The position numbers and the translations under genes were made by a program. The notes beneath the pieces were generated by a model, which had not been told where the DNA came from, did no database searches, and worked only from the letters and a program-made list of their open reading frames with translations. 11,184 nucleotides of DNA from Candidatus Heimdallarchaeota archaeon (lineage in GTDB: Archaea; Asgardarchaeota; Heimdallarchaeia; Hodarchaeales; Hodarchaeaceae), in the NCBI GenBank assembly GCA_011364965.1, contig RDOB01000015.1, positions 1 to 11,184 of the forward strand, written 5' to 3'. This document shows positions 2 to 11,167 of the stretch, one piece after another (position 1 is the first letter of the stretch; each line of letters starts with the position of its first letter).

Positions 2-2530
2 CTTCCTGATAAAGTAGAAAATCAAACTGGAACCGATCCCAAAGATTCAGATACAGATGACGATACATATAGTGATGGTTGGGAAATTCTTCATGGATAT
101 AATCCTTTGGATAAAGCAAGCCCAGCACGGACTTTGTGGCGAGACTCATTACTCTCAGGAGATAATAGTCCAATAATCGAACGGGATCTTAAAAATATTG
201 ATCGAGTTAAAATTTATCGACATGCAGAAGATGAAGAAGAATATTTATTACAAGATACTGTTAATACTTCATTAGATCAATATTTTTCTGAAGAAATATT
301 TCTTATTGATACAGATGGGAGTGTTGAGTGGACTCATTTTAAATTCGAGTTTTATCGGCAAAATAACTCTGCTGGAACTGAATTTGTAAAGGTCTACGAC
401 GAATATTTCTATGCTTATGATGATGATGGATCTCCGCCTGATACTGATAACGATGATCTCCCTGACTACTATGAAGATAAAATTGGCACGCAATGGGATG
501 GAACAGGATCAGCATATTCGGATACGGATGGCGATGGCATCAATGATGGACTAGAAGTGCTGTTTTATGGAACTTCTCCATTCAAACAGGATTCGGACGA
601 AGATGGCTTGAATGACTTACAGGATTTATGTTATGGCTATCCTTTCTATCCCCAGGAGGGATATCGATTGACTCGTTGGGATATTGATAACGATTCAAGA
701 CCGAATTGGTGGGACTCTGATTCGGATAATGATGGGTTAAATGATTCTTACGAAGATACGAACAGAGACGGCGCATATGAACCTTGGGATTTAAGTGATC
801 TTTTTGACCCTGACACAGATAATGATGGGTTACTAGATGGATTTGAAGTTGAAATTGGCACTGATCCTAAAGACTCCGATACTGATGATGATAACTTTTT
901 GGACGGTTTTGAAGTCCAGAATAACCTGAATCCCAAGGTAGCTGATACATTAGACTGGGCATATTACTTTGCAGAGAATTTTGATTTGAACGACTTGGAA
1001 GACAACGGATGGATTGATATTTCTACCTATGGGACGACACGGGCAGGGGGACTCTCCACAACAACTGCTTATACTAATGAAGAAGCAGAGGAAGACTTTG
1101 TCGTGGGTATTCAGCGCTCTGATAATGATTATAGCGCTTGGAGTCAAGCAGACCTTTATCAATACCAAGTAGATGAAACAATTCGCTATGGTTATGTTGT
1201 CAGTTGGAATCTAACAAATCTACGGTCAGATAATCCTGCGCAAGCGATTGAATCCGCTACAGTCGATTTAAACTGGTATTCAACCACTGATTGGGATAGT
1301 GATGACAAAGTTGCCATGGCATTTATCAATACATATTGCAATGGGAGTTATCTTAACGATTCCAGTCCCAATACCCACATCAACCAATCTCTGTGGTATC
1401 CTCATATCCAGAATGTCTCAGGGATTAGTGTAAACAACGATGCAGATACATTTGACATAGATATCACTGAGTTGGTAGATATCTGGTATAATTACTGTAA
1501 TTCCTCTCTGTTTTCTTTGTATATCTTCCCTGATCCAGAGAATACCATTCAACAGTCTTATGAGCGATTACGCTTTGATCAGACGACATGGAATCCCAAG
1601 ATCACCATAGTAACAGGTGATTCTGTCCTTCGAGCAGCAGCTTATGGTTCATTATCAACAGATTGGCATGGGCCAAAAGTATATTATAATTTCAGTTGTG
1701 ATATCGATGATTTTAATTTCTCGTTCAGTCCTTACTGTGAATCTGCAGGATCAGTAGTCAACAAACAATTAGGAAAATTAATAGTAACCTTGTACACAGG
1801 TGACGCGGGAACAGGAGAGGCGTTATATCAGTTTATTTGGACGGACAGTTGGGGATCTGATTCAAATAGTCGAATTATTTTTAAGGAAAAAAGCACAAAT
1901 TTGTATGATTCTGGAGCAGGTCAGACCTATCGCTACTGGTACAGTGAGACGCAAGATAATGTTACAATATGGCGTAATGAGTCCAAAGTAGTATTGATAA
2001 TAGGGTCTGATGGTTCCTATACGACAGATACGACTGAAAACTCTAATACGACTGCTATCCGAAGTATAACCATCGAATTTCAACAATATAAAACAAATAA
2101 TATCATTCCCAAGCTGGGAGTCAGAACTCTCCTGTTCAAAGGTCATTCTGACAATTATGACGACGATGAATACAATAATACAGAGGAACAGACCTTCGAG
2201 GGGTCAATTTGGCTGGATGAACCTGAAATCTTAGACTCCTCTGATATCACTTGGACTTGGACTGGTTCTCACTGGGCTGCGAATTCAATCATGAAGATTG
2301 CCTGTCACTTCACTGGGGAATATTGGGTGAAGGTCGAATATCGCGTTGAGTCAGGGAGTTGGAATACCGTTCGGGATGAATATGCTGATTTGGTTCTAGG
2401 AACGAATACGATCACTGATAGTCAAATCTGCACGGTAGGAACCTCAGTGAGTGTCACTGTCCGATGGACGATATGGAATGATAATGTATATTGGTCAAAA
2501 GAGGAGACTTCTCCTGCTTTTGAACCTTAA
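2..2530 (+). CDS. Large acidic extracellular/surface protein (5'-partial) with bacterial TSP3-like DxDxDG Ca2+-binding repeats and predicted beta-sandwich domains, including a DNRLRE/CBM96-like module
   Basis: The frame of ORF 107..2530 is open back to position 2 (LPDKVENQTGTDPKDSDTDDDTYSDGWEILHGYNPLDK), so the TTG at 107 is not the true start. Many D-T/S-D-x-D-G-L-x-D-x-x-E repeats (e.g. DTDGDGINDGLE, DSDEDGLNDLQD, DTDNDGLLDGFE). Many N-x-S/T sequons. IESATVDLNWY...FDIDITELVDIWY...NPKITIV resembles DNRLRE-type domains. Ends at TAA 2528-2530 with no C-terminal membrane anchor. Confidence 0.85.
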   Translation, partial: LPDKVENQTGTDPKDSDTDDDTYSDGWEILHGYNPLDKASPARTLWRDSLLSGDNSPIIERDLKNIDRVKIYRHAEDEEEYLLQDTVNTSLDQYFSEEIFLIDTDGSVEWTHFKFEFYRQNNSAGTEFVKVYDEYFYAYDDDGSPPDTDNDDLPDYYEDKIGTQWDGTGSAYSDTDGDGINDGLEVLFYGTSPFKQDSDEDGLNDLQDLCYGYPFYPQEGYRLTRWDIDNDSRPNWWDSDSDNDGLNDSYEDTNRDGAYEPWDLSDLFDPDTDNDGLLDGFEVEIGTDPKDSDTDDDNFLDGFEVQNNLNPKVADTLDWAYYFAENFDLNDLEDNGWIDISTYGTTRAGGLSTTTAYTNEEAEEDFVVGIQRSDNDYSAWSQADLYQYQVDETIRYGYVVSWNLTNLRSDNPAQAIESATVDLNWYSTTDWDSDDKVAMAFINTYCNGSYLNDSSPNTHINQSLWYPHIQNVSGISVNNDADTFDIDITELVDIWYNYCNSSLFSLYIFPDPENTIQQSYERLRFDQTTWNPKITIVTGDSVLRAAAYGSLSTDWHGPKVYYNFSCDIDDFNFSFSPYCESAGSVVNKQLGKLIVTLYTGDAGTGEALYQFIWTDSWGSDSNSRIIFKEKSTNLYDSGAGQTYRYWYSETQDNVTIWRNESKVVLIIGSDGSYTTDTTENSNTTAIRSITIEFQQYKTNNIIPKLGVRTLLFKGHSDNYDDDEYNNTEEQTFEGSIWLDEPEILDSSDITWTWTGSHWAANSIMKIACHFTGEYWVKVEYRVESGSWNTVRDEYADLVLGTNTITDSQICTVGTSVSVTVRWTIWNDNVYWSKEETSPAFEP

Positions 2531-2637: not shown

Positions 2638-2958
2638 CGCTCTGAAAGAAATAACGGCTTCTTAGAACCCACTTTTACTTTTTTTTCCAATTCTGATAAA
2701 GTCTCTATTGATGCCTCAGAGACCTATGTAAAATCTATTATGGAGCTACATAGTATAAGGCTATCTATAACGATTAATGAAGTATACTGAAACCCAAAGT
2801 TCTTCATTTTGGGAATATTAGACTTTACCAATGTTAGTACCAAAACGCTTCAGCAACCCCAAGAATTTGCAGAGCAGCATGGATATTCGCTTTTGACTCT
2901 CAGAGAGACGGATTTTGATTTTTTCACGGACAACGTTCTTTCGATCCTAAATGGCTGA
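2638..2958 (+). pseudogene. Probable pseudogene fragment resembling the C-terminal half (beta4-alpha3-beta5-alpha4-beta6) of a Rab/Ras-like small GTPase
   Basis: Frame +1 reads RSERNNGFLEPTFTFFSNSDKVSIDASETYVKSIMELHSIRLSITINEVY*NPKFFILGILDFTNVSTKTLQQPQEFAEQHGYSLLTLRETDFDFFTDNVLSILNG*, with one internal TGA (2788-2790). FSNSDKVSIDASETYVKSI parallels the Rab pattern FDITDRESFENVKKWLKEI, KFFILGI parallels PIALIGI of the 10246..10926 protein, and QEFAEQHGYSLL parallels its QAFTKKHNIPYY. No P-loop half is visible. Similarity judged by eye. Confidence 0.45.
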
Positions 2959-2999
2959 ATATCATCATTATTCTCCATATCGGGCTTACTACTAATATT

Positions 3000-3247
3000 T
3001 TCGCTTCAACTGTTCCTAACCGCAGGAGGGCTACTCTTGGAAAGAGTGTGGAAATTGAGTTAGATGAGAAAATCCCTCGGGAGATAGTTATAGAAGCAGT
3101 ATTCTGGATAGATTACAAAAATAGCTCTTGATCTGATGTCTGTACGTTGGTTGAGACCTAAATATGAGTTTTTATATATCTCCTCCACTTTAAAAGAGTA
3201 TAATGATTATGTTCGTTAAAGGTATCTTTCTGAAGATTTAAAGTTTA
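3000..3247 (+). repeat. Structured dispersed repeat, copy A (full core 3004-3153 plus a tail shared with copy D)
   Basis: Shares caggagggctact with B and C. Shares aaaatccct, atagaagcag and an identical 24-mer gatctgatgtctgtacgttggttg (3130-3153 = 11122-11145) with C. Shares tgattatgtt...aggta (3204-3224) with D. The right boundary is set by the start of copy B. Confidence 0.85.
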
Positions 3248-3318
3248 CTTCAGCTGTTCCTCACTACAGGAGGGCTACTATTTAGTAAATAGTGGGGAAA
3301 TTGAGTTTTTTTTTAAAA
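3248..3318 (+). repeat. Structured dispersed repeat, copy B (left half only, tandem to A)
   Basis: agctgttcctcactacaggagggctactatttag matches copy C at 32/34 positions, followed by ggaaattgag and a T-run/A-run. Similarity stops ~40 bp before the ABC operon stop codon at 3359. Confidence 0.85.
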
Positions 3319-3358
3319 GACCAGATTTCATTCCGACTGCTAGTACTTGAAATAGCTA

Positions 3359-4279
3359 TCAGCTTTTCTCAAAGGGGACTGCAAGAGAGGTTGGTGCACC
3401 AACGATGCTCTTAACTTTTTGACGCGACAGGATTATTCCCCAAATCGCAAGAAAAAGAATGGTGGAAACATGAGGAGCCATCTTTAAAACAGGTGTTGGC
3501 AGAAATTGTTGAAAATAGTATTTCATGACATCAAAAGTCCCAAATATATAAGATCCTAGAAAAGCGCCAAGCGGATTCCAGAGTGCAACCACCACCAATG
3601 CAATAACGATCCACCCTCGGCCCTGTGTCATTCCTTCAGACCAAAAATTGAGGTAACCTAAAGATAAGTAAGCTCCTCCTAATCCTGACATCATACCTCC
3701 AAAAATGACACAAGCGAACCTCAATAGGTTCACATTTACCCCTTGGTTGTATGCTGCTTCAGGGTTTTCTCCAACAGATCGAATTAAAATACCAATTCGT
3801 GTTTTATAAAGAATAAACCAGCAAATTGGCACCATAATATATGAAAAATAAACTAGTATTGGATGATCGAAGAAGATTTCTCCAATGAACGGTATATCAC
3901 TCAGAAAAGGGATATGAACATTTTCTAAGGTATCAATAGCCTTTCCAATAACTCCACGTCCAAGAATACCACTAAGTCCTGTACCAAGAATGGTCAATCC
4001 AATCCCAGAGACAACCTGAGTTCGAGTAAAAGTAATGGATATTATCGCATGAATCCCAGAGAGCACCCCTCCAAGTAACATTCCAGAAAGAACTCCAATC
4101 CATAGATTTTGAGTACTATAAGCTATTGCATAAGAAAAAGCAGCAGATGCAATTATCATCCCCTCAATTCCAAGATTTAATATCCCTGATCGCTCTGCAT
4201 AAATTTCTCCAAGCGTAGGAAGAAGGAAAAATGTTGCTGCAGCAACGATTGAGCTAAACATTAGGATATAATCTACCAT
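3359..4279 (-). CDS. ABC transporter permease, nucleoside/purine type (NupC/NupQ(YufQ)-like, BPD_transp_2 family)
   Basis: Family motifs LGEIYAERSGILNLGIEG, RSVGENPEAA and GMTQGRGWIVIALV. Multiple TM helices. AGGAGG SD at 4289-4294 (minus strand). Abuts the upstream permease stop. Confidence 0.93.
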   Translation of the reverse strand: MVDYILMFSSIVAAATFFLLPTLGEIYAERSGILNLGIEGMIIASAAFSYAIAYSTQNLWIGVLSGMLLGGVLSGIHAIISITFTRTQVVSGIGLTILGTGLSGILGRGVIGKAIDTLENVHIPFLSDIPFIGEIFFDHPILVYFSYIMVPICWFILYKTRIGILIRSVGENPEAAYNQGVNVNLLRFACVIFGGMMSGLGGAYLSLGYLNFWSEGMTQGRGWIVIALVVVALWNPLGAFLGSYIFGTFDVMKYYFQQFLPTPVLKMAPHVSTILFLAIWGIILSRQKVKSIVGAPTSLAVPFEKS

Positions 4280-5362
4280 TTAGGATTCCCTCCTCATTTT
4301 AATTGTAAAGCGAAAGAAAAATTCGCTTAACAAAACAAAGAATATTATAATCCCACTAAATAGCTGTAATACCGTGGCAGGTATCCCTGTCAATGCTAAT
4401 CCCCCTACTTTTAACGCAGCAAAGAATAATGCACTAACTATAATACCTAAGGGGTTCAAGCCTCCAAGATAGGCAACTGCAATTCCTGTGTACCCATAAC
4501 CTTGGCTTTTTACTCCCAAACGTAATGCATTTCCAGCAACTTCTCCAACTCCAGCAATAGCTGCCATACCGCCAGAAAAAATCATGGTGATTAAGATAAC
4601 TCGAAAGAAACTCATTCCTGCTATACGACCTGCAAGAGGATTTTTTCCCATTACATTAATCTCATACCCTAATTTCAACTTTGGAATTCCATCAATGTTT
4701 CTAAATAAGAAATAATAAACCAAGAGCGTGATAGCGAGAATAAGAAATATGGAAATATAAATAGGAGTGCCTGGAATTTTTGGTAATTGTGCATTTTCAG
4801 GTAATAAAGAACTATAGGTGAATCCTGTCTCAGGATCTCGCCAGAGATCACTAACTAACCATTCCATTAAATATAAAGCTGGAAATACCAAAAGAAAGCT
4901 TACAACAACATCAGCTCCTTGAAATCCTCCCTTAGCACGGAAAAGTACAACTGGAATAGCCCATATCGCTCCTAAAATAAATGCATTTACGAACATTAAC
5001 GGAATAAGAATTATCCCAGGTAAATCAGGAAATAAAAATGCTGTTCCAGTCGCAGTTAACATCCCTATTATATACTGTCCTTCTGCGCCGATATTATCCA
5101 CTCTAGCTTTGAAAGGGATAGCCAATCCTAGCCCAATTGCTAATAGGGGAATAAAACGAGCAATAGTATTAGGAATTAACAATAAATTGACTCGAATCAT
5201 ATCAATGTATGTGATTATTGGATTCACTCCATTAAGTAGGAAAATTAACCCTGCTACAACTAATCCAAACAGCAAAAATGCAATCCTGAATAAGATTGCA
5301 TTGATTCCAGTTATCGGTTCTATCCTTTTTTGGAAGAAAAGTCTATGATTCAAAATTCTCAT
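4280..5362 (-). CDS. ABC transporter permease, nucleoside/purine type (NupB/NupP(YufP)-like)
   Basis: Motifs NIGAEGQY, GYEINVMGKNPLAGRIAGM and GYGYTGIAVAYLG. Many TM helices. GGAGGT SD at 5369-5374. ATGA overlap with the ATPase stop codon. Confidence 0.93.
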   Translation of the reverse strand: MRILNHRLFFQKRIEPITGINAILFRIAFLLFGLVVAGLIFLLNGVNPIITYIDMIRVNLLLIPNTIARFIPLLAIGLGLAIPFKARVDNIGAEGQYIIGMLTATGTAFLFPDLPGIILIPLMFVNAFILGAIWAIPVVLFRAKGGFQGADVVVSFLLVFPALYLMEWLVSDLWRDPETGFTYSSLLPENAQLPKIPGTPIYISIFLILAITLLVYYFLFRNIDGIPKLKLGYEINVMGKNPLAGRIAGMSFFRVILITMIFSGGMAAIAGVGEVAGNALRLGVKSQGYGYTGIAVAYLGGLNPLGIIVSALFFAALKVGGLALTGIPATVLQLFSGIIIFFVLLSEFFFRFTIKMRRES

Positions 5363-6915
5363 ACCAATACCTCCGTTTGGTGAGCTCCTCCCATCATTAG
5401 TCCAATCATTTCTCTGGTTGCATTTTCTCTAGAAATTATACCCATAATTTTCCCTTTGAAGATTACAGCAATTTCATCGCAAAGACTCATGATTTCTGTT
5501 AAATCACTTGAAACAAGGAGGATAGCTGCGCCTTCAGCTCTTTTCCGTAAAAGCTCTTCTCTCACAAATTGAGTTGTACCTACATCTAGTCCAAATGTAG
5601 GATTTTCTGCAATTAGAATCAAATCTTTTCCTTGTTTAAGAGAGAATTCTCGCGCAACGACTACTTTTTGTCTATTTCCTCCACTTAAACTCCTAATTGG
5701 GGAGAGTGGACTGGTTGTTTTGATATTATACCGCCTAATTAACGCTTCTGTTTCTGGAATAATTCTAGAGCGATCTATAATCAAGGATTTCGAATTCTGA
5801 TATGAATTTAACATTAGGTTATCTCTTACTGAAAGGTCAAATATCAAAGCTTTTCGCCTATCCTCTGGAATGTAAGCTACTCCTAATTCCCTAACCTTTT
5901 TTATTGGTTTATTTGTGACATCTTGACCTCTTATCTTAATTCTCCCCTTCTCTAAATTCCTCCACCTAAATAATCCTTCAATTAACTCTCTTTGCCCATT
6001 CCCTGATATTCCTGCTAATCCAAGGATTTGGTTTGTTTTTAAGTGAAGAGAAATTCCATGTACAACTGCATCACCCATGTCATTATTGACTACTGCATCA
6101 TCTAATTCCACAACTATGGTACCAGTATGTACTTTATCTTGATGTAGGTCGTAAAGCACTTCTTTACCAACCATTAGAGAAGCGAGATGCATAATCGCTT
6201 CCTTTTCATTTGCATAATCCTTTCTAAGCTTTTGGGTATCTAAAACTCCCACAACCTCCCCATGTCGAAGAACAGTTATTCGATCACTAAGGTTTATGGC
6301 TTCTTCAAGATGATGTGTAATAATAATAATACTCTTCCCTTCTTCTTTAAGATTTTTTAATAAACTAAACAATCTCTCTATCTCAGGGGGAGTTAACATC
6401 GCAGTTGGTTCATCAAGAATCAAAATACTTGGATTAGTAATTAATGCCTTGAGGATTTCAACACGTTGTTTTTCTCCTCCAGATAACTTCCAAACCTTAG
6501 CTTTAGGGTTGATATCACCTAAATTAAATTTCTGTAGTGCTTTCTTAATTGCACGTTCGATTTCCGCTAATGATAGAAAAAAGCCTTCAGAAAAGCTTAA
6601 AATGTTTTCCGCAACTGTGTGACGTTCAATAAGAGATTTAGATAGATCTTGACGAGCAATTGCCAACTTATATTCTTTAATTGCTGTCAAAGGATTGTCT
6701 AAATTCACTTCAACTCCATTAATAAAAATATGGCCTGAATCAGGGGGAAAAAATAATCCATTAACTAGCGTCGACTTGCCTGCACCATTTTCTCCCAAAA
6801 TAGCATGAATTTCACCTTTATTTAAAGAAAAATTCACATGATCATTCGCTTTAACGACAATACCATCGCCATAGAAAGTTTTACAGATATCTTTCATCTC
6901 TAAGACCGAATCCAT
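5359..6915 (-). CDS. ABC transporter ATP-binding protein with two fused NBDs, CUT2 sugar/nucleoside type (NupA/NupO(YufO)-like)
   Basis: NBD1: Walker A GENGAGKS, LSGGE signature, Walker B ILDEPT, ITHH. NBD2: degenerate GISGNGQR, LSGGN, IAENPT. The start is reassigned from 6978 to ATG 6915 (MDSVLEMKDI), which has GGAG 8 nt upstream. Confidence 0.93.
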   Translation of the reverse strand: MDSVLEMKDICKTFYGDGIVVKANDHVNFSLNKGEIHAILGENGAGKSTLVNGLFFPPDSGHIFINGVEVNLDNPLTAIKEYKLAIARQDLSKSLIERHTVAENILSFSEGFFLSLAEIERAIKKALQKFNLGDINPKAKVWKLSGGEKQRVEILKALITNPSILILDEPTAMLTPPEIERLFSLLKNLKEEGKSIIIITHHLEEAINLSDRITVLRHGEVVGVLDTQKLRKDYANEKEAIMHLASLMVGKEVLYDLHQDKVHTGTIVVELDDAVVNNDMGDAVVHGISLHLKTNQILGLAGISGNGQRELIEGLFRWRNLEKGRIKIRGQDVTNKPIKKVRELGVAYIPEDRRKALIFDLSVRDNLMLNSYQNSKSLIIDRSRIIPETEALIRRYNIKTTSPLSPIRSLSGGNRQKVVVAREFSLKQGKDLILIAENPTFGLDVGTTQFVREELLRKRAEGAAILLVSSDLTEIMSLCDEIAVIFKGKIMGIISRENATREMIGLMMGGAHQTEVLV

Positions 6916-7119
6916 TCGCATAACTCCAACGTTTACTCCATGATAACGCAGTAGACCATAAAACAAGAATTCAGGCACTGATTTAGTATAGAGAAAAGAT
7001 AGTGAATTTTAATAAAAATTCATTCTTAGAAAAATCTAAACTAAAACTTGGAAATTAGAAAGACTAGCGTGTTGTATTCCTACATAATTTAACCAATATT
7101 AGTTAATAGCAGAAATTGT

Positions 7120-7144
7120 AAAAAAAAAGAAAAAAGGAAAAAAA
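7120..7144 (-). terminator. Oligo-U terminator/attenuator after the BMP gene
   Basis: Plus-strand A-tract aaaaaaaaagaaaaaaggaaaaaaa is a U-tract on the minus strand, ~10 nt after the BMP stop codon. Confidence 0.6.
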
Positions 7145-7153
7145 GTAGGGAGT

Positions 7154-8311
7154 TTATCCTGGAGTACCTATAACACCGTCCACGAACCAATCCATATACG
7201 TGAAGAGGTCAGGTATAGTGGCTTGTACTCCCGCAGCAAACATTAGTGTTCCATTCTGAGCATAAATAGGCCCTGTGAAAGGGAAGAACGTCTCAGCTGC
7301 CATTTTATCATGTTTATCCATGATGTAGTCGTAAGCATTTGTTGCACCAACAGTTATACTTTGCAATTCAGGTACGAAGAGAGGATTAATAGGAACGTCG
7401 AAATTTCCGCCTAATTCGACTGCACCTTCTTTGAGGAACCATAAATAGTCCACATCAGATAAATTAGTAGAATTATAGGTTCCATCATAAACTTTGGATA
7501 GTATCTCGTCATACATGATATCCCAATGGGCCAACTGACCTGAAATTGTGCTCTCAGGAGCATAGCTTTGCATGGGTGAGTAGTGACTAAAAGCATACAC
7601 GTCATCTTCTTCTTCCGCTGCTTGCATGACTGCAGGACTATCTTCTGTGAAAGCCAACATGTCCACACCTTTACCTATAAGGGAATTTGCAGCACTTGTG
7701 GCGGCAGTAGGATCGTACCATGAATTAATCCAAGTTACTTCAACTGTAGAATCGTTATTTGCAGCTTTCATACCAAGTGTGAATGCATTGATATGGCGGA
7801 TAACTTCTGGAATTGGGAATGCGCCAACATATCCTGCTTTCGTTGTATTAGAGAGATAGCCAGCCATCATTCCATTCAGATAGTACATCTGATACAAATC
7901 TGCGAAATAGGTTCCAACATTTGCAGCTCTTTTGTAGCCAGAACAGTGAAAGAATAGTGTATCTGGGTGTTCTGCTGCAGCTGCAATGGTGCCATCCATA
8001 AATCCAAAGGAAGTTGTGAAAATCACATTACATCCTTTGACGGTTATCAGAGTGTCAGCTGCTTCTTTAACGGATGCGATATCTTCACCGACGGTTTCTA
8101 TGTATTCTGTGCCGAGCCAAGAATACTTCTCATCTACGTAGACTCGTCCGACATCATGAGCATTAGTCCACCCATAATCACCGATCGGTCCTACATAGAT
8201 AAATCCTGCTTTAACCTTGACTGCCTCTGGACCTGTACATCCAGAAAAAGCAACCAAAAGCATTAATATACCAAATATCAAGAATATTCTAGAATAAGTT
8301 GATTTTTTCAT
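7154..8311 (-). CDS. BMP family (PnrA/BmpA/Med-like) ABC substrate-binding lipoprotein, likely nucleoside/purine binding
   Basis: Signal peptide with lipobox-like AFSG-C. Family motifs KAGFIYVGPIGDYGWTNAHD, IFTTSFGFMD and GYVGAFPIPEVIRHINAF. First gene of the ABC operon. Confidence 0.93.
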   Translation of the reverse strand: MKKSTYSRIFLIFGILMLLVAFSGCTGPEAVKVKAGFIYVGPIGDYGWTNAHDVGRVYVDEKYSWLGTEYIETVGEDIASVKEAADTLITVKGCNVIFTTSFGFMDGTIAAAAEHPDTLFFHCSGYKRAANVGTYFADLYQMYYLNGMMAGYLSNTTKAGYVGAFPIPEVIRHINAFTLGMKAANNDSTVEVTWINSWYDPTAATSAANSLIGKGVDMLAFTEDSPAVMQAAEEEDDVYAFSHYSPMQSYAPESTISGQLAHWDIMYDEILSKVYDGTYNSTNLSDVDYLWFLKEGAVELGGNFDVPINPLFVPELQSITVGATNAYDYIMDKHDKMAAETFFPFTGPIYAQNGTLMFAAGVQATIPDLFTYMDWFVDGVIGTPG

Positions 8312-8346
8312 AGGTTATCAACCGAATTTTATAGACATCAAATTAA

Positions 8347-8354
8347 TATTTAAA
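8347..8354 (-). promoter_or_regulatory. Candidate archaeal TATA box for the BMP/ABC operon
   Basis: TTTAAATA on the minus strand 36-43 nt upstream of the ATG at 8311, with purine-rich GAAAAA further upstream. AT-rich background makes this tentative. Confidence 0.35.
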
Positions 8355-8368
8355 CATTAGCGATTTTT

Positions 8369-8481
8369 CATGATAGATTTGGCGCTTGCTCTGCTGTCTG
8401 TACCTTGGTTGGACAATTATTTTAGTGATTTTGCCTTTTCTAGACTGAGATTCTTTCCCTGATTATGTTATTTACTAGGTA
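8369..8481 (+). repeat. Structured dispersed repeat, copy D (right half only)
   Basis: ttggcgcttgctctgctgtctgtaccttggttgg (8379-8412) matches C 11113-11146 at 30/34 positions. Also catgatag (8369-8376 = 11092-11099), gtgattttg (8425-8433 = 11159-11167) and tgattatgtt (8460-8469 = A 3204-3213). Confidence 0.8.
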
Positions 8482-8576
8482 AATCCTTTAAGTCTAGAAT
8501 TCCTATTGTGAGAGAAAGCTAGAATTCATAGAGTGAAAGATTATTCATTCTTCATACCTTATGTGGGGTTGTTAAA

Positions 8577-9278
8577 GTGGTTGAAATGGACGCAAAGAAG
8601 CAAAAGGAACCATCAGAGAGTCCGAAACCTCAGCGTAAAATCCTTCTGATGGCTTTAAGTGCTTCAGGACGCACGGGAATTGCGAAGAAATTTATCGATG
8701 AAACCTGGCCGCAGGATGACAAAGCATACTACAAACCAACTATTGATTACGAACGCCACACACGTGTGATATGTGGGACTGAATTCGTAGTGTTTGATTG
8801 CGGGGGACAAACCGCCTTTATGGACCAATTTACTGGCAAGTTAGCTGAATTTATGTTCTCAAAAGTAGCAAGTTTAGTGTTCTGTGTAAATGCGTCTGCG
8901 AATGGTATTGGCCAGATCTCCCGAGCAAAATATTATTTTGACCTGGCGTTACACCGACTTGAGACTTACAGTCCCTCCGCAATGGTCTTCCTGATCCTCA
9001 CGAAAATGGATCTAGTTCCAGAATCCCTTGAAGAAGAAGTAGTGGAAGCCATCATCACCTATATACTCCATCAAGTACCGAAAAAAGTCATAATTTTTCA
9101 CACCTCGATTTTTGATTATACCGCCACGCAAGCGGTAGAATCCATTATTCGGGCAAACCTCCAGGTTTTTGATCCGGTTATCAGTCAACTCAACGGGAAA
9201 CGTTTCAAGACTCTCGAAGATCCGTTTCATACGCAAGCTATTCAGGAAGCACTCCGAATCCTCAAGTCCACGGATTAA
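8577..9278 (+). CDS. Gtr1/RagA-family small GTPase (G-domain only) with a non-canonical P-loop
   Basis: RKILLMALSASGRT (G1), PTIDYE (G2), FDCGGQ (G3), TKMD (G4) and TSIFD (G5) parallel Gtr1/RagA motifs MGxSGSGKS, ATIDVE, WDCGGQ, HKMD and TSIWD. No C-terminal roadblock domain. The start may be ATG 8586 rather than GTG 8577. Confidence 0.85.
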   Translation: MVEMDAKKQKEPSESPKPQRKILLMALSASGRTGIAKKFIDETWPQDDKAYYKPTIDYERHTRVICGTEFVVFDCGGQTAFMDQFTGKLAEFMFSKVASLVFCVNASANGIGQISRAKYYFDLALHRLETYSPSAMVFLILTKMDLVPESLEEEVVEAIITYILHQVPKKVIIFHTSIFDYTATQAVESIIRANLQVFDPVISQLNGKRFKTLEDPFHTQAIQEALRILKSTD

Positions 9279-9503
9279 AAGGGATTTTTGGAATCCTAGC
9301 GTATTCTAAAGCTCCTACTTTTTTAGTAATAATCTGGACTGCTCATTTGCTCAGGATTTATTCTATAAGTGCGTTAATTGTGGTAAGATGTAGCTTGGAT
9401 TAACTGACGACTGGACTTAGGCTAATCCCTAAGACATGAAAAACTCTATAAACATGCTTTTCTTTTTTTTGCATTAAATGTACTAACAGGATGATTAATT
9501 AAG

Positions 9504-10211
9504 GTGAAGCTGCAATCCGCACTAACAACAATTGGCTTTTTAGCCTTATTCATATCTCCTATTTTTTCAGCCATGGGAATCCAGACAGAAGTCGCTTATA
9601 GAGAGTTCCCTGTCGGAAATGCATATTCGTGGCAATTTCTGACAGTTTTAAATGATTCCCAACCATGTTATACTACTTGGCGTAGTGGATTAGATAACTT
9701 GACACAAAATGATAAAATATCTCTGAAAATTCTCTTTTCCACCAACTCTTCCCTTAGATATGAAATTTCTGCCAATAGTCAATCATTTGAGGAAGGATTT
9801 GTGTTAAATTCCTTCTTACAACAACTAGGAGAAGGAAATTCATATATACACCTCGGGTACTATTTTTTCCTTCCAACAGGAGAGGAATTCTGGAGCGAAC
9901 TGGCATTGCACATTAGTTCTACTATCCCAGCCGCTGATGTCCACAATAGGGAATCCATTTTTTCATTTAATGCTTCAACAATCTTTCATCAAACATATTC
10001 TTGGGAGTTTGATAAAGCAACTGGTCTTTTGAGATCATTTAGGCAAATTGTGCGGGATCCCAACTTGAATTATGGACCACGTACCCCAGATGAATTGTAT
10101 TTACTTCGGACGGATTTGAAGTCGAAGTTACCCGAACTCACTCATATAACTGTTGGAATATTGATTCTCGGAGGCTTCATTCTGTTACTTGTGCTTAGAA
10201 AGAGACAATAA
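9504..10211 (+). CDS. Hypothetical type-I membrane/cell-surface protein
   Basis: N-terminal signal-like hydrophobic stretch, beta-rich ectodomain with sequons (NDS, NLT, NSS, NAS) and a WEFDKATGLL motif, C-terminal TM helix ITVGILILGGFILLLVL followed by RKRQ. Confidence 0.75.
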   Translation: MKLQSALTTIGFLALFISPIFSAMGIQTEVAYREFPVGNAYSWQFLTVLNDSQPCYTTWRSGLDNLTQNDKISLKILFSTNSSLRYEISANSQSFEEGFVLNSFLQQLGEGNSYIHLGYYFFLPTGEEFWSELALHISSTIPAADVHNRESIFSFNASTIFHQTYSWEFDKATGLLRSFRQIVRDPNLNYGPRTPDELYLLRTDLKSKLPELTHITVGILILGGFILLLVLRKRQ

Positions 10212-10245
10212 GCTATTATTTGAGTTATGCACTTAGACGACAAAA

Positions 10246-10926
10246 TTATGATTCTTGATCCATGGAAGCTCCTTGAGCTGTTAAAGCTTTCTTCGCTAGT
10301 TCGGTGAGGATATATTCCACCTGGGATTTTTTATCTGTGAGAGTGATTTCGTAATATGGTATATTATGCTTCTTTGTAAATGCTTGCACATCCGCTATAT
10401 CGACGGGAATTAATTCAATTGCTTTTGCTTTTGGATGTTTTTTACCTTGTTTTTTACCTAATATCCGCTGAATTTGTCTAATAAATTTCCTTACATACCC
10501 TATTTCGGTTATTCTAGGCTCTTTAGTCCTAATTTCTTCAGTTCTAATTTCTTCAGTTCTAGGTTCTTCAATGCCTATCAGAGCAATTGGAATAGATGCG
10601 TCTGGGATATGTTTTCGGAATTCCGCTAACCAACTTAAAGCAAAAGTTTTCTTTTCATTTAGAGCGAATATTATTAAACAAGCCGATGCTCCTCTGTAAT
10701 AGCTAGGCCTGAGTTTACCAAAAAATTCCTGTCCTGCAGTATCCACAAGAATGAGCTTCACTCGATTATTCCCGATCTGAATTTTTTTAGTTGTGATATC
10801 CACTCCCAAAGTTGGCATATAATTGGTCGTAAATTTACCTTCTGCATATACCCTGACTAGTTGTGTTTTATATTTTGAGGCTCCTATTATACAGATCTTC
10901 AGTAAATACTCGTTTTCCCCACTCAT
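10246..10926 (-). CDS. Rab-like small GTPase-fold protein with degenerate G1/G4/G5 (probable pseudoGTPase)
   Basis: YLLKICIIG start, YMPTLGVDI (G2/RabF1), KLILVDTAGQE (G3), YYRGA (RabF4). G1 is GASKYKT, the G4 position reads GIEE and the G5 position reads EITL. No C-terminal cysteines. Confidence 0.85.
   Translation of the reverse strand: MSGENEYLLKICIIGASKYKTQLVRVYAEGKFTTNYMPTLGVDITTKKIQIGNNRVKLILVDTAGQEFFGKLRPSYYRGASACLIIFALNEKKTFALSWLAEFRKHIPDASIPIALIGIEEPRTEEIRTEEIRTKEPRITEIGYVRKFIRQIQRILGKKQGKKHPKAKAIELIPVDIADVQAFTKKHNIPYYEITLTDKKSQVEYILTELAKKALTAQGASMDQES
10511..10570 (-). repeat. Four imperfect 15-bp in-frame tandem repeats inside the Rab-like gene (EEPRT-EEIRT-EEIRT-KEPRI)
   Basis: Plus-strand units attctaggctcttta / gtcctaatttcttca / gttctaatttcttca / gttctaggttcttca. 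Confidence 0.9.
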
Positions 10927-10990
10927 CGGATTTCTCGTTTTTTAAAGCAGTGCTGGTTCATAAATCTTCCTAATCATAGTAGTCTTCTTA

Positions 10991-11167
10991 TTCGTTAGCT
11001 GTCCCTCACTGCAGGAGGGCTACTATTTAGCACCTAGTATGGATATTGAGATTTTTTAAAAAAATCCCTAGTGAGACAGCGATAGAAGCAGCATGATAGG
11101 TATTCATACAACTTGGCGCTGGATCTGATGTCTGTACGTTGGTTGGGAAGTATTTAGCGTGATTTTG
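10991..11167 (+). repeat. Structured dispersed repeat, copy C (full core, may continue beyond the window end)
   Basis: Colinear with copy A over ~150 bp. Left half matches B (32/34) and right half matches D (30/34). Begins ~65 bp upstream of the Rab-like start codon. Confidence 0.85.

Follow-up and report, generated by a model that had tools for sequence, protein, structure and literature searches.

The window analysed here is the complete 11,184-bp contig C8 (RDOB01000015.1) from the genome of a Candidatus Heimdallarchaeota archaeon (G000; 2.97 Mb in 16 contigs, 35% GC). It carries genes for a surface protein, an ABC transporter and two small GTPases, among which a repeat of about 150 nt recurs on the plus strand as two full copies, one 5' fragment and one 3' remnant. 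These repeats are orphan copies of the tail of a 23S rRNA gene, made up of the terminus of the gene and the trailer that follows it, and they are called tails below. An earlier note, drawn from the letters of this DNA, had described four related, co-oriented segments (A, B, D and C) sharing five conserved blocks as an unrecognised repeat family. The relationship of the four segments is far beyond chance by repeat finding, BLAST and an iterated nhmmer profile, which were used for copy detection, and all five blocks were found in their places. Only A and C are full units, with B merely the 5' part and D the last ~44-60 nt, and the family can now be named.

The tails of the window and their parts are as follows, with nhmmer ranges and E-values, and with bit scores from R1, a covariance model derived from 25 tails in five genomes:

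3001..3161, plus strand: tail A, full short form; R1 153.5 bits; nhmmer 3009-3158, E=1e-39
3010-3031, plus strand: tail A, block of the 23S 3' terminus
3031-3048, plus strand: tail A, hairpin Ha
3073-3099, plus strand: tail A, block homologous to the processing-stem 3' strand
3130-3153, plus strand: tail A, conserved 3' block
3248..3318, plus strand: tail B, 5' part only (23S terminus, hairpin Ha and GGAAATTGAG block); nhmmer 3252-3357, E=4.5e-17
8373..8433, plus strand: tail D, last ~44 nt of the trailer unit with ~17 nt of post-tail motif; nhmmer 8373-8416, E=7e-6
10990..11167, plus strand: tail C, full short form; R1 144 bits; nhmmer 10997-11150, E=6e-42
10999-11020, plus strand: tail C, 23S terminus
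11020-11039, plus strand: tail C, hairpin Ha
11065-11091, plus strand: tail C, block of the processing-stem strand
11122-11145, plus strand: tail C, 3' block
11151-11167, plus strand: tail C, post-tail motif

Tail B begins ~90 nt past tail A, and the interval between them is essentially empty. It covers profile positions 2-97 and is 84-89% identical to other copies by BLAST; the match is solid to 3318, and weak similarity may reach 3357. Tail D covers profile positions 111-154 and is 82-87% identical to 11113-11167 in tail C and to C12:510699-510639 on another contig. The window ends 17 nt past tail C. The blocks that tie the segments together are ctgtYcct...gagggc (3010-3031, 3254-3275 and 10999-11020), ggaWattgag (at 3050, 3296 and 11041), tccct...atagaagcag (3073-3099 and 11065-11091) and gatctgatgtctgtacgttggttg (3130-3153, 8388-8411 and 11122-11145).

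The repeat is the 3' end of the 23S rRNA gene with its trailer

The identity of the repeat follows from the archaeal large-subunit rRNA (LSU) model RF02540. Positions 2721-2973 of this model match C12:515019-515329 with 222 bits, a 310-nt 23S fragment that is attached to one copy and continuous with it. The last aligned position, 2973, lies within the 5' block of the repeat, at the boundary between ...CCCTAACCGCAG and GAGGGC.... In three related genomes, G005 (where the gene is the real one), G008 and G003, matches to the repeat profile fall exactly at the ends of LSU matches. The common short form thus comprises ~30 nt of the mature 23S 3' terminus and a trailer of ~120-135 nt. Homology extends through the trailer: the true tail of G005, behind its 23S gene, is ~92% identical to a spare tail over ~170-185 nt, and the true tail of G008 groups with the spare tails of that genome.

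Less often the repeat takes a long form, which begins ~45 nt before the sarcin-ricin motif AGTACGAGAGGAAC and includes the whole of domain VI as well as the trailer. Five such copies were found in three species, and their starts agree within about 6 nt of one 23S position. Judged from their flanks, two 3'-only copies in G000 look like long forms with an identical internal deletion, and since they share it, one would have been copied from the other.

Rfam cmscan gave no match in the window at E<=1, and in particular none to a non-coding RNA family other than rRNA. At E<=0.1 it also returned nothing on C12:513519-516829, although the LSU model scores 222 bits there; these misses are treated as a filter problem and not as absence. 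A search of the window for tRNA genes found none.

In two relatives the array starts at the real 23S gene

Where do such tails come from? Two relatives hold arrays that start at a real 23S gene. In G005, the 23S gene (LSU model position 1068 to the end on its contig) is followed by its trailer, three genes, one of them Schlafen/AlbA_2-like, and a spare tail. The true and the spare tail, direct repeats that have ~92% identity and sharp edges, enclose an insert of 3.6 kb. In G008, at least 20 co-oriented tails extend across 47 kb, and the one furthest upstream is attached to the body of a true 23S gene, which extends as far as the contig end.

When the genome and its relatives were scanned with the profile and covariance models, as the earlier note had proposed, 27 copies appeared in G000, and R1 gave multi-copy, co-oriented matches in 20 of the 22 genomes of the genus. 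Every contig with several listed matches has all of them on one strand. Nothing was found by R1 in 61 genomes that belong to other genera of the class, a result that does not exclude analogous arrays there, as the trailer sequence is lineage-specific. A search of the scaffold-level genomes G010 and G015 with the LSU model gave nothing, and BLAST gave only a 56-nt piece.

Compared with the array contigs of three other species, the cargo of G000 is almost wholly non-homologous, with only Ras-family GTPases and one AbiEii shared. From one species to another the region is thus hypervariable, which supports the reading of the earlier note in this respect.

The true 23S gene of G008 differs from that of G005 by an insertion of ~320 nt (L070:14309-14628, on contig C8 of G008, minus strand). 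It lies just upstream of the conserved GCTGGGTTTAGACCGTCGTGAGACAGG segment of domain V and may be an rRNA intron.

Conserved blocks, hairpin Ha and the processing stem

Among the 15 full copies, conservation is uneven, with near-invariant blocks beside variable stretches. Hairpin Ha, which sits where the 23S terminus meets the trailer, is 85% paired, well above slid controls. It is accompanied by compensatory changes (ACTCTT/AAGAGT, ACTATT/AATAGT and ATTATTC/GAATAAT), and two of its pairs show 3-5 pair types. Ha is missing from some true and some spare tails, and for this reason it is regarded as an optional expansion. In addition, a second metagenome-assembled genome (MAG) with a twin of the window has only one indel relative to it, the loss of 8 nt from the Ha loop of tail C (11020-11039); the twin being conspecific, Ha is therefore changing on a within-species timescale.

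In G008, the trailer block homologous to TCCCTCG..AGATAGC.ATAGAAGCAG of the window appears by eye to pair locally with the 23S leader, in helices of 9, 4, 5 and 4 bp with bulges on either side of a 4-bp helix. This layout, read by eye and without statistics, would be like an archaeal bulge-helix-bulge processing stem. The long leader-trailer duplex of G008 is no better than shuffled sequences (-82 against -79±6 kcal/mol). Orphan tails have no leader partner. Global structures from RNAalifold are weak and shift with the alignment, the 3' domain of the repeat gives no consistent fold, and a 'P1' helix (70% paired) was not relied on. T-rich runs follow many copies. The covariation of Ha and the conserved blocks are best explained by a role in the true operon, as rRNA end and pre-rRNA processing stem.

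Orphan tails could also be functional in place and be kept by selection. Each might, for example, terminate transcription, insulate, provide a processing signal or encode a small RNA, and in this way keep apart the modules that lie downstream of a very strongly transcribed rRNA operon. Such a function would account for the near-invariant blocks amid uneven conservation, the compensatory changes that keep Ha, the T-rich runs behind many copies and an orientation that is uniform whatever the direction of the genes. However, many tails are fragments or internally deleted (5'-only, 3'-only and the 44-nt remnant D), global folds are weak and unstable, no Rfam family was matched, and T-runs are common at 35% GC. 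Moreover, the conserved blocks are those needed in the true operon, whose leader partner the orphans lack. We consider a function in place quite improbable.

Layout and cargo of the array

Genome-wide, nhmmer finds 27 copies: four in the window, 22 in C12:440,877-525,028, all 22 on the minus strand, and one solitary fragment. The window and the final 85 kb of contig C12 thus hold 26 of the 27, with one orientation per contig. On a crude open reading frame (ORF) map, these 26 co-oriented tails divide ~96 kb into modules, each with 1-5 accessory genes that may lie on one strand or the other, which agrees with the cassette-like arrangement between same-orientation repeats that had been proposed for the window. 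Proteins flanking the tails are mostly unrelated or are distant paralogues (22-67% identical), whereas the tails share 72-92% nucleotide identity; therefore the tails are not passive leftovers of segmental duplication.

The solitary fragment (C12:200817-200930) is remote from the array, follows a 493-aa ORF and consists of the 5' part only. Its 23S terminus (CACTAATCGCAC) is more canonical than those of the array copies, and it may reflect the real tail or a second, decayed insertion site.

C8 may adjoin C12 in the genome. A direct junction of the right end of C8 with the end of C12 was rejected as a statement of fact, given that the two do not overlap and that the sequence which continues the window in its twin is unmatched in G000.

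The genes of the window are as follows:

2..2530, plus strand: TSP3-repeat surface protein gene, 5'-truncated by the contig start (Pfam TSP3_bac, E=6e-16)
2674..2955, plus strand: pseudogene that retains the C-terminal 94 residues of a protein paralogous to the 305-aa ORF at C12:496153-497070
3359..8311, minus strand: nucleoside-type ABC transporter operon of four genes, cassette cargo (Pfam)
8577..9278, plus strand: Gtr1/RagA-like small GTPase, cargo (Pfam Gtr1_RagA, E=1e-23)
9504..10211, plus strand: 235-aa protein with an N-terminal signal-like segment and a C-terminal membrane anchor, cargo; no Pfam family
10246..10926, minus strand: Ras/Roc-family (Rab-like) small GTPase, cargo (Pfam Ras, E=2e-27); one of eight divergent array paralogues

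The TSP3-repeat gene lies left of tail A and is either cargo or flank. Its product is large, with many Asp-rich, calcium-binding repeats of the thrombospondin type-3 kind that are visible in the DNA as a GAxxCxGAxAAxGAT periodicity. The remnant before tail A, taken for a GTPase pseudogene in the earlier note, belongs instead to an unrelated 305-aa protein without a Pfam family (tblastn 68% amino-acid identity over 94 residues, E=1e-39; one in-frame stop). The transporter operon comprises two BPD_transp_2 permeases, an ABC ATPase and a Bmp/PnrA-like binding protein, in ORFs 3359-4279, 4280-5362, 5359-6978 and 7154-8311. As had been noticed before, tails D and C bracket the Rag, membrane protein and Rab genes as direct repeats, and these gene calls are upheld. 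The Rag-like GTPase, the anchored 235-aa protein and the Ras/Rab-like GTPase form one cassette (8577-10926). The hydrophobic ends of the 235-aa protein were read from its translation. A paralogue 26% identical to it lies in the array at C12:492538-493311, which hints at a recurring module of a GTPase and a membrane partner.

Across the array, the cargo includes eight Ras-family GTPases and one Rag-like GTPase, ABC/FtsX transporter pairs, genes of the nucleotidyltransferase, Fic, AbiE and SatD/Mrr types, PadR regulators, a subtilase, a TPR protein, a TnpB and many ORFs without a family. About 6 of the ~48 Ras-family genes (E<=1e-5) lie in this 3.2% of the genome where 1.55 are expected, an enrichment of about 4-fold (Poisson P~0.005, with paralogues that are not independent). 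The Ras-family copies of the array are the most divergent in the genome. The tie to small GTPases that the earlier note had drawn is therefore real but modest: most of the cargo is of other kinds (ABC transporters, toxin-antitoxin or defence-like genes, regulators and unknowns), and GTPases are not its defining element.

AbiEi/AbiEii toxin-antitoxin pairs form cassettes in both G000 (L036:4597-6541) and G008 (L070:6685-8612). Their AbiEii proteins are 42% identical, and AbiEii is the sole non-GTPase cargo common to the arrays of these two genomes.

Duplication and shuffling within the array

Tails from one genome share an identity of 0.68, against 0.55 for tails from different genomes, and those of G000 all fall into a single clade. 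Adjacent tails are no more similar than distant ones (p=0.21). The closest relatives of tails A and C lie on C12, ~30 kb inside its share of the array; for tail A this is C12:506103, with 92% identity by BLAST. Some duplications include genes as well as tails. For example, window 2680-3155 and C12:496431-495943 align over 490 nt at 79%, and as the match spans a gene end and the tail behind it, both were duplicated as one unit. Similarly, window 10881-11144 matches C12:501208-500947 at 86%, showing that the start and promoter region of the Ras/Roc gene were duplicated together with the adjacent tail. In total, 21 of ~75 array ORFs have paralogues within the array. The suggestion that the repeats allow GTPase genes to be duplicated and shuffled holds to this extent, since the in-array paralogues and the co-duplicated units of gene end and repeat show both processes, but GTPases make up only a part of the cargo.

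These observations raise the alternative that the array grew purely in place, by unequal crossing-over, segmental duplication and gene turnover, with no dedicated capture. The clustering of tails by genome, the 21 ORFs with in-array paralogues, the joint duplication of gene end and tail, the internally deleted tail variant that was apparently copied within the array and the failure to find mobility genes would all be expected of such growth. It accounts poorly, however, for cassettes that are mostly unrelated to one another, for neighbouring tails that are not the most alike and for the simple insert of G005 between direct repeats right at the 23S end. In addition, the cargo is almost wholly non-homologous between congeneric species, for which duplication alone is insufficient. 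Growth purely in place is on balance unlikely.

Known mobile elements as the source of the repeats

The strict strand bias of the tails is typical of single-strand transposition, and a TnpB gene (OrfB_IS605 with a Cas12f-like TNB domain) stands directly after one copy, at C12:480975-482240. The tails could on these grounds be a miniature inverted-repeat transposable element (MITE) or a derivative of the insertion sequences IS200/IS605 that spread locally in one orientation. This is very improbable. The ends of the copies carry no inverted repeat, no TnpA was found near the TnpB gene, and the copies are confined to one region with one outlier. The copy beside TnpB, a gene unrelated to the repeat, retains its two ends around an internal deletion and was not truncated by TnpB, and the sequence itself is a 23S tail.

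Co-oriented repeats between small cassettes, in an array that varies across species, are likewise what an integron or an integrase-less attC cluster (CALIN) would show, and archaeal integrons are enriched in Asgard genomes, mostly as CALINs (Ghaly et al. 2022, PMC9668308). The modules, however, hold 1-5 genes, and these occupy both strands, which is not typical of integron cassettes. Single-stranded DNA folds of tails A and C on both strands form no end-to-end hairpin, with unremarkable z-scores of -0.8, -1.9, +1.2 and +0.4, so that the paired-end geometry of attC is absent; the verdict of the earlier note that the repeats are neither CRISPR nor attC is upheld. Moreover, the repeat is homologous to the 23S tail and not to attC. 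The genome has only two PF00589 tyrosine recombinases, at C9:581 kb and at the start of C1, both outside the array. No homologues of the two were found on the array contigs of relatives that were examined, in a search that did not cover the IntI-specific domain. An integron or CALIN of the kind reported in Asgard archaea is thus extremely unlikely here.

The recombinase at the start of C1 has 329 aa and is followed by a Ras-family GTPase gene (C1:230-1873). It was considered as an array-linked candidate and rejected, as no link to the array was found. The first 77 nt of this contig (C1:1-77) recur unchanged at C16:300-376, pointing to either an assembly overlap or a repeat.

A proposed mechanism

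With the repeat recognised as a 23S end and trailer, the likely mechanism becomes one of insertion or recombination at an rRNA gene end. The array was probably built by repeated, target-duplicating insertion at the 23S tail, followed by recombination between tails; the insertion step and its catalyst are what we infer. Blocks of DNA would have been inserted again and again at the tail, each time through recombination of the chromosomal tail with a tail copy on an incoming, probably circular, block. Each event would restore the end of the rRNA gene and add one tail in the same direction. Islands at the 3' ends of tRNA and tmRNA genes pile up in tandem in this manner. Recombination between tails could then duplicate, delete and reshuffle cassettes. 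This would explain the families of in-array paralogues, including the divergent small GTPases, the units of gene end and tail that were copied together and the distant location of the closest tails. Candidate catalysts are a recombinase acting in trans and the homologous recombination of the cell itself.

Several points weigh against insertion at the tail. No recombinase or other mobility gene was found among the ~80 array ORFs, many of which have no Pfam family, or in the cassettes beside the true 23S genes of G005 and G008. Tandem islands at tRNA and tmRNA genes usually keep some integrases. The real 23S gene of G000, like its 16S gene, is not in the assembly, so that anchoring is shown only in relatives. 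The twin of the window, contig JAEOUP010000046.1 (GCA_016839295.1), is 99.75% identical with 19 mismatches and is collinear over the window. Neither an excised circle nor an empty site nor any presence/absence polymorphism was seen in a comparison with this twin and with short Logan contigs, which are uninformative about rearrangement. Furthermore, the conserved blocks in orphan tails could reflect selection in place, and tails that are just 72-92% identical are a poor substrate for homologous recombination.

On a bolder view, which we put forward tentatively, the 23S tail may be the attachment site of an undescribed Asgard gene-capture system. Such a system could be free of integrases, working through circular cassettes and homologous recombination, or use a recombinase of no known family, and it would be integron-like without attC or IntI. 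In Hodarchaeales, it might also serve as a nursery for the duplication, divergence and exchange of eukaryote-type small GTPases, both Ras/Rab-like and Rag-like.

Relation to known systems

Among known systems, the ssrA-specific islands of Dehalococcoides share several features with the array, and an integration module is present in 16 of 31 of them (McMurdie et al. 2011, PMC3146451). Like these islands, the array would target the 3' end of a gene for a stable RNA, duplicates of which lie in the orientation of that gene and would each stem from an insertion. In both cases, units stack in tandem behind the intact gene (here in G005 and G008), and the cargo is variable and accessory. The array differs in its anchor, which is a 23S rRNA gene and trailer instead of a tRNA or tmRNA gene, and in the duplicated segment of ~150-185 nt, or ~445 nt in the long form. 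Its units are small (1-5 genes) and numerous (at least 26), and none was found to hold an integration module.

With sedentary chromosomal integrons and CALINs (PMC9668308), the array has in common its length, small cassettes, co-oriented repeats of ~60-150 nt that are similar within a host, hypervariable cargo and the frequent lack of an adjacent integrase. In contrast to theirs, its repeats derive from an rRNA gene end and have neither a paired-end hairpin nor R and L boxes. No tyrosine recombinase lies near it, and a cassette in it may carry more than one gene, with genes on both strands that presumably have promoters of their own.

A third case, HeimM2 of Ca. Heimdallarchaeum, is an 8-kb element between a 16S rRNA gene and a tRNA gene that encodes a homing-endonuclease homologue (Wu et al. 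2022, PMC8813620). Like the array, it is an Asgard insertion directly beside an rRNA gene, which suggests that the borders of rRNA genes are used as insertion sites in this group. HeimM2 is single, however, lies at 16S and has neither an array nor duplicated rRNA tails. Literature searches found no published description of 23S-tail arrays, with HeimM2 as the nearest case.

The end of the rRNA gene therefore seems to be a reusable site of gene insertion with no integrase in sight. If this is correct, the end of an essential and conserved gene would be a landing pad at which accessory genes are stockpiled and reshuffled across an Asgard genus, and a third kind of gene-capture platform would stand beside integrons and tRNA/tmRNA-anchored islands, one for which no recognisable integrase was found. 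The tails also show where divergent copies of eukaryotic-signature GTPases gather in the closest archaeal relatives of eukaryotes, and they are a simple marker of the most plastic part of the genome. Routine annotation would miss such orphan pieces of rRNA. The tails stay unannotated, and they break assemblies. Logan contigs here are ~1-5 kb long and break at tails, and the twin contig runs 153 nt beyond the right end of the window, into sequence that is missing from the G000 assembly.

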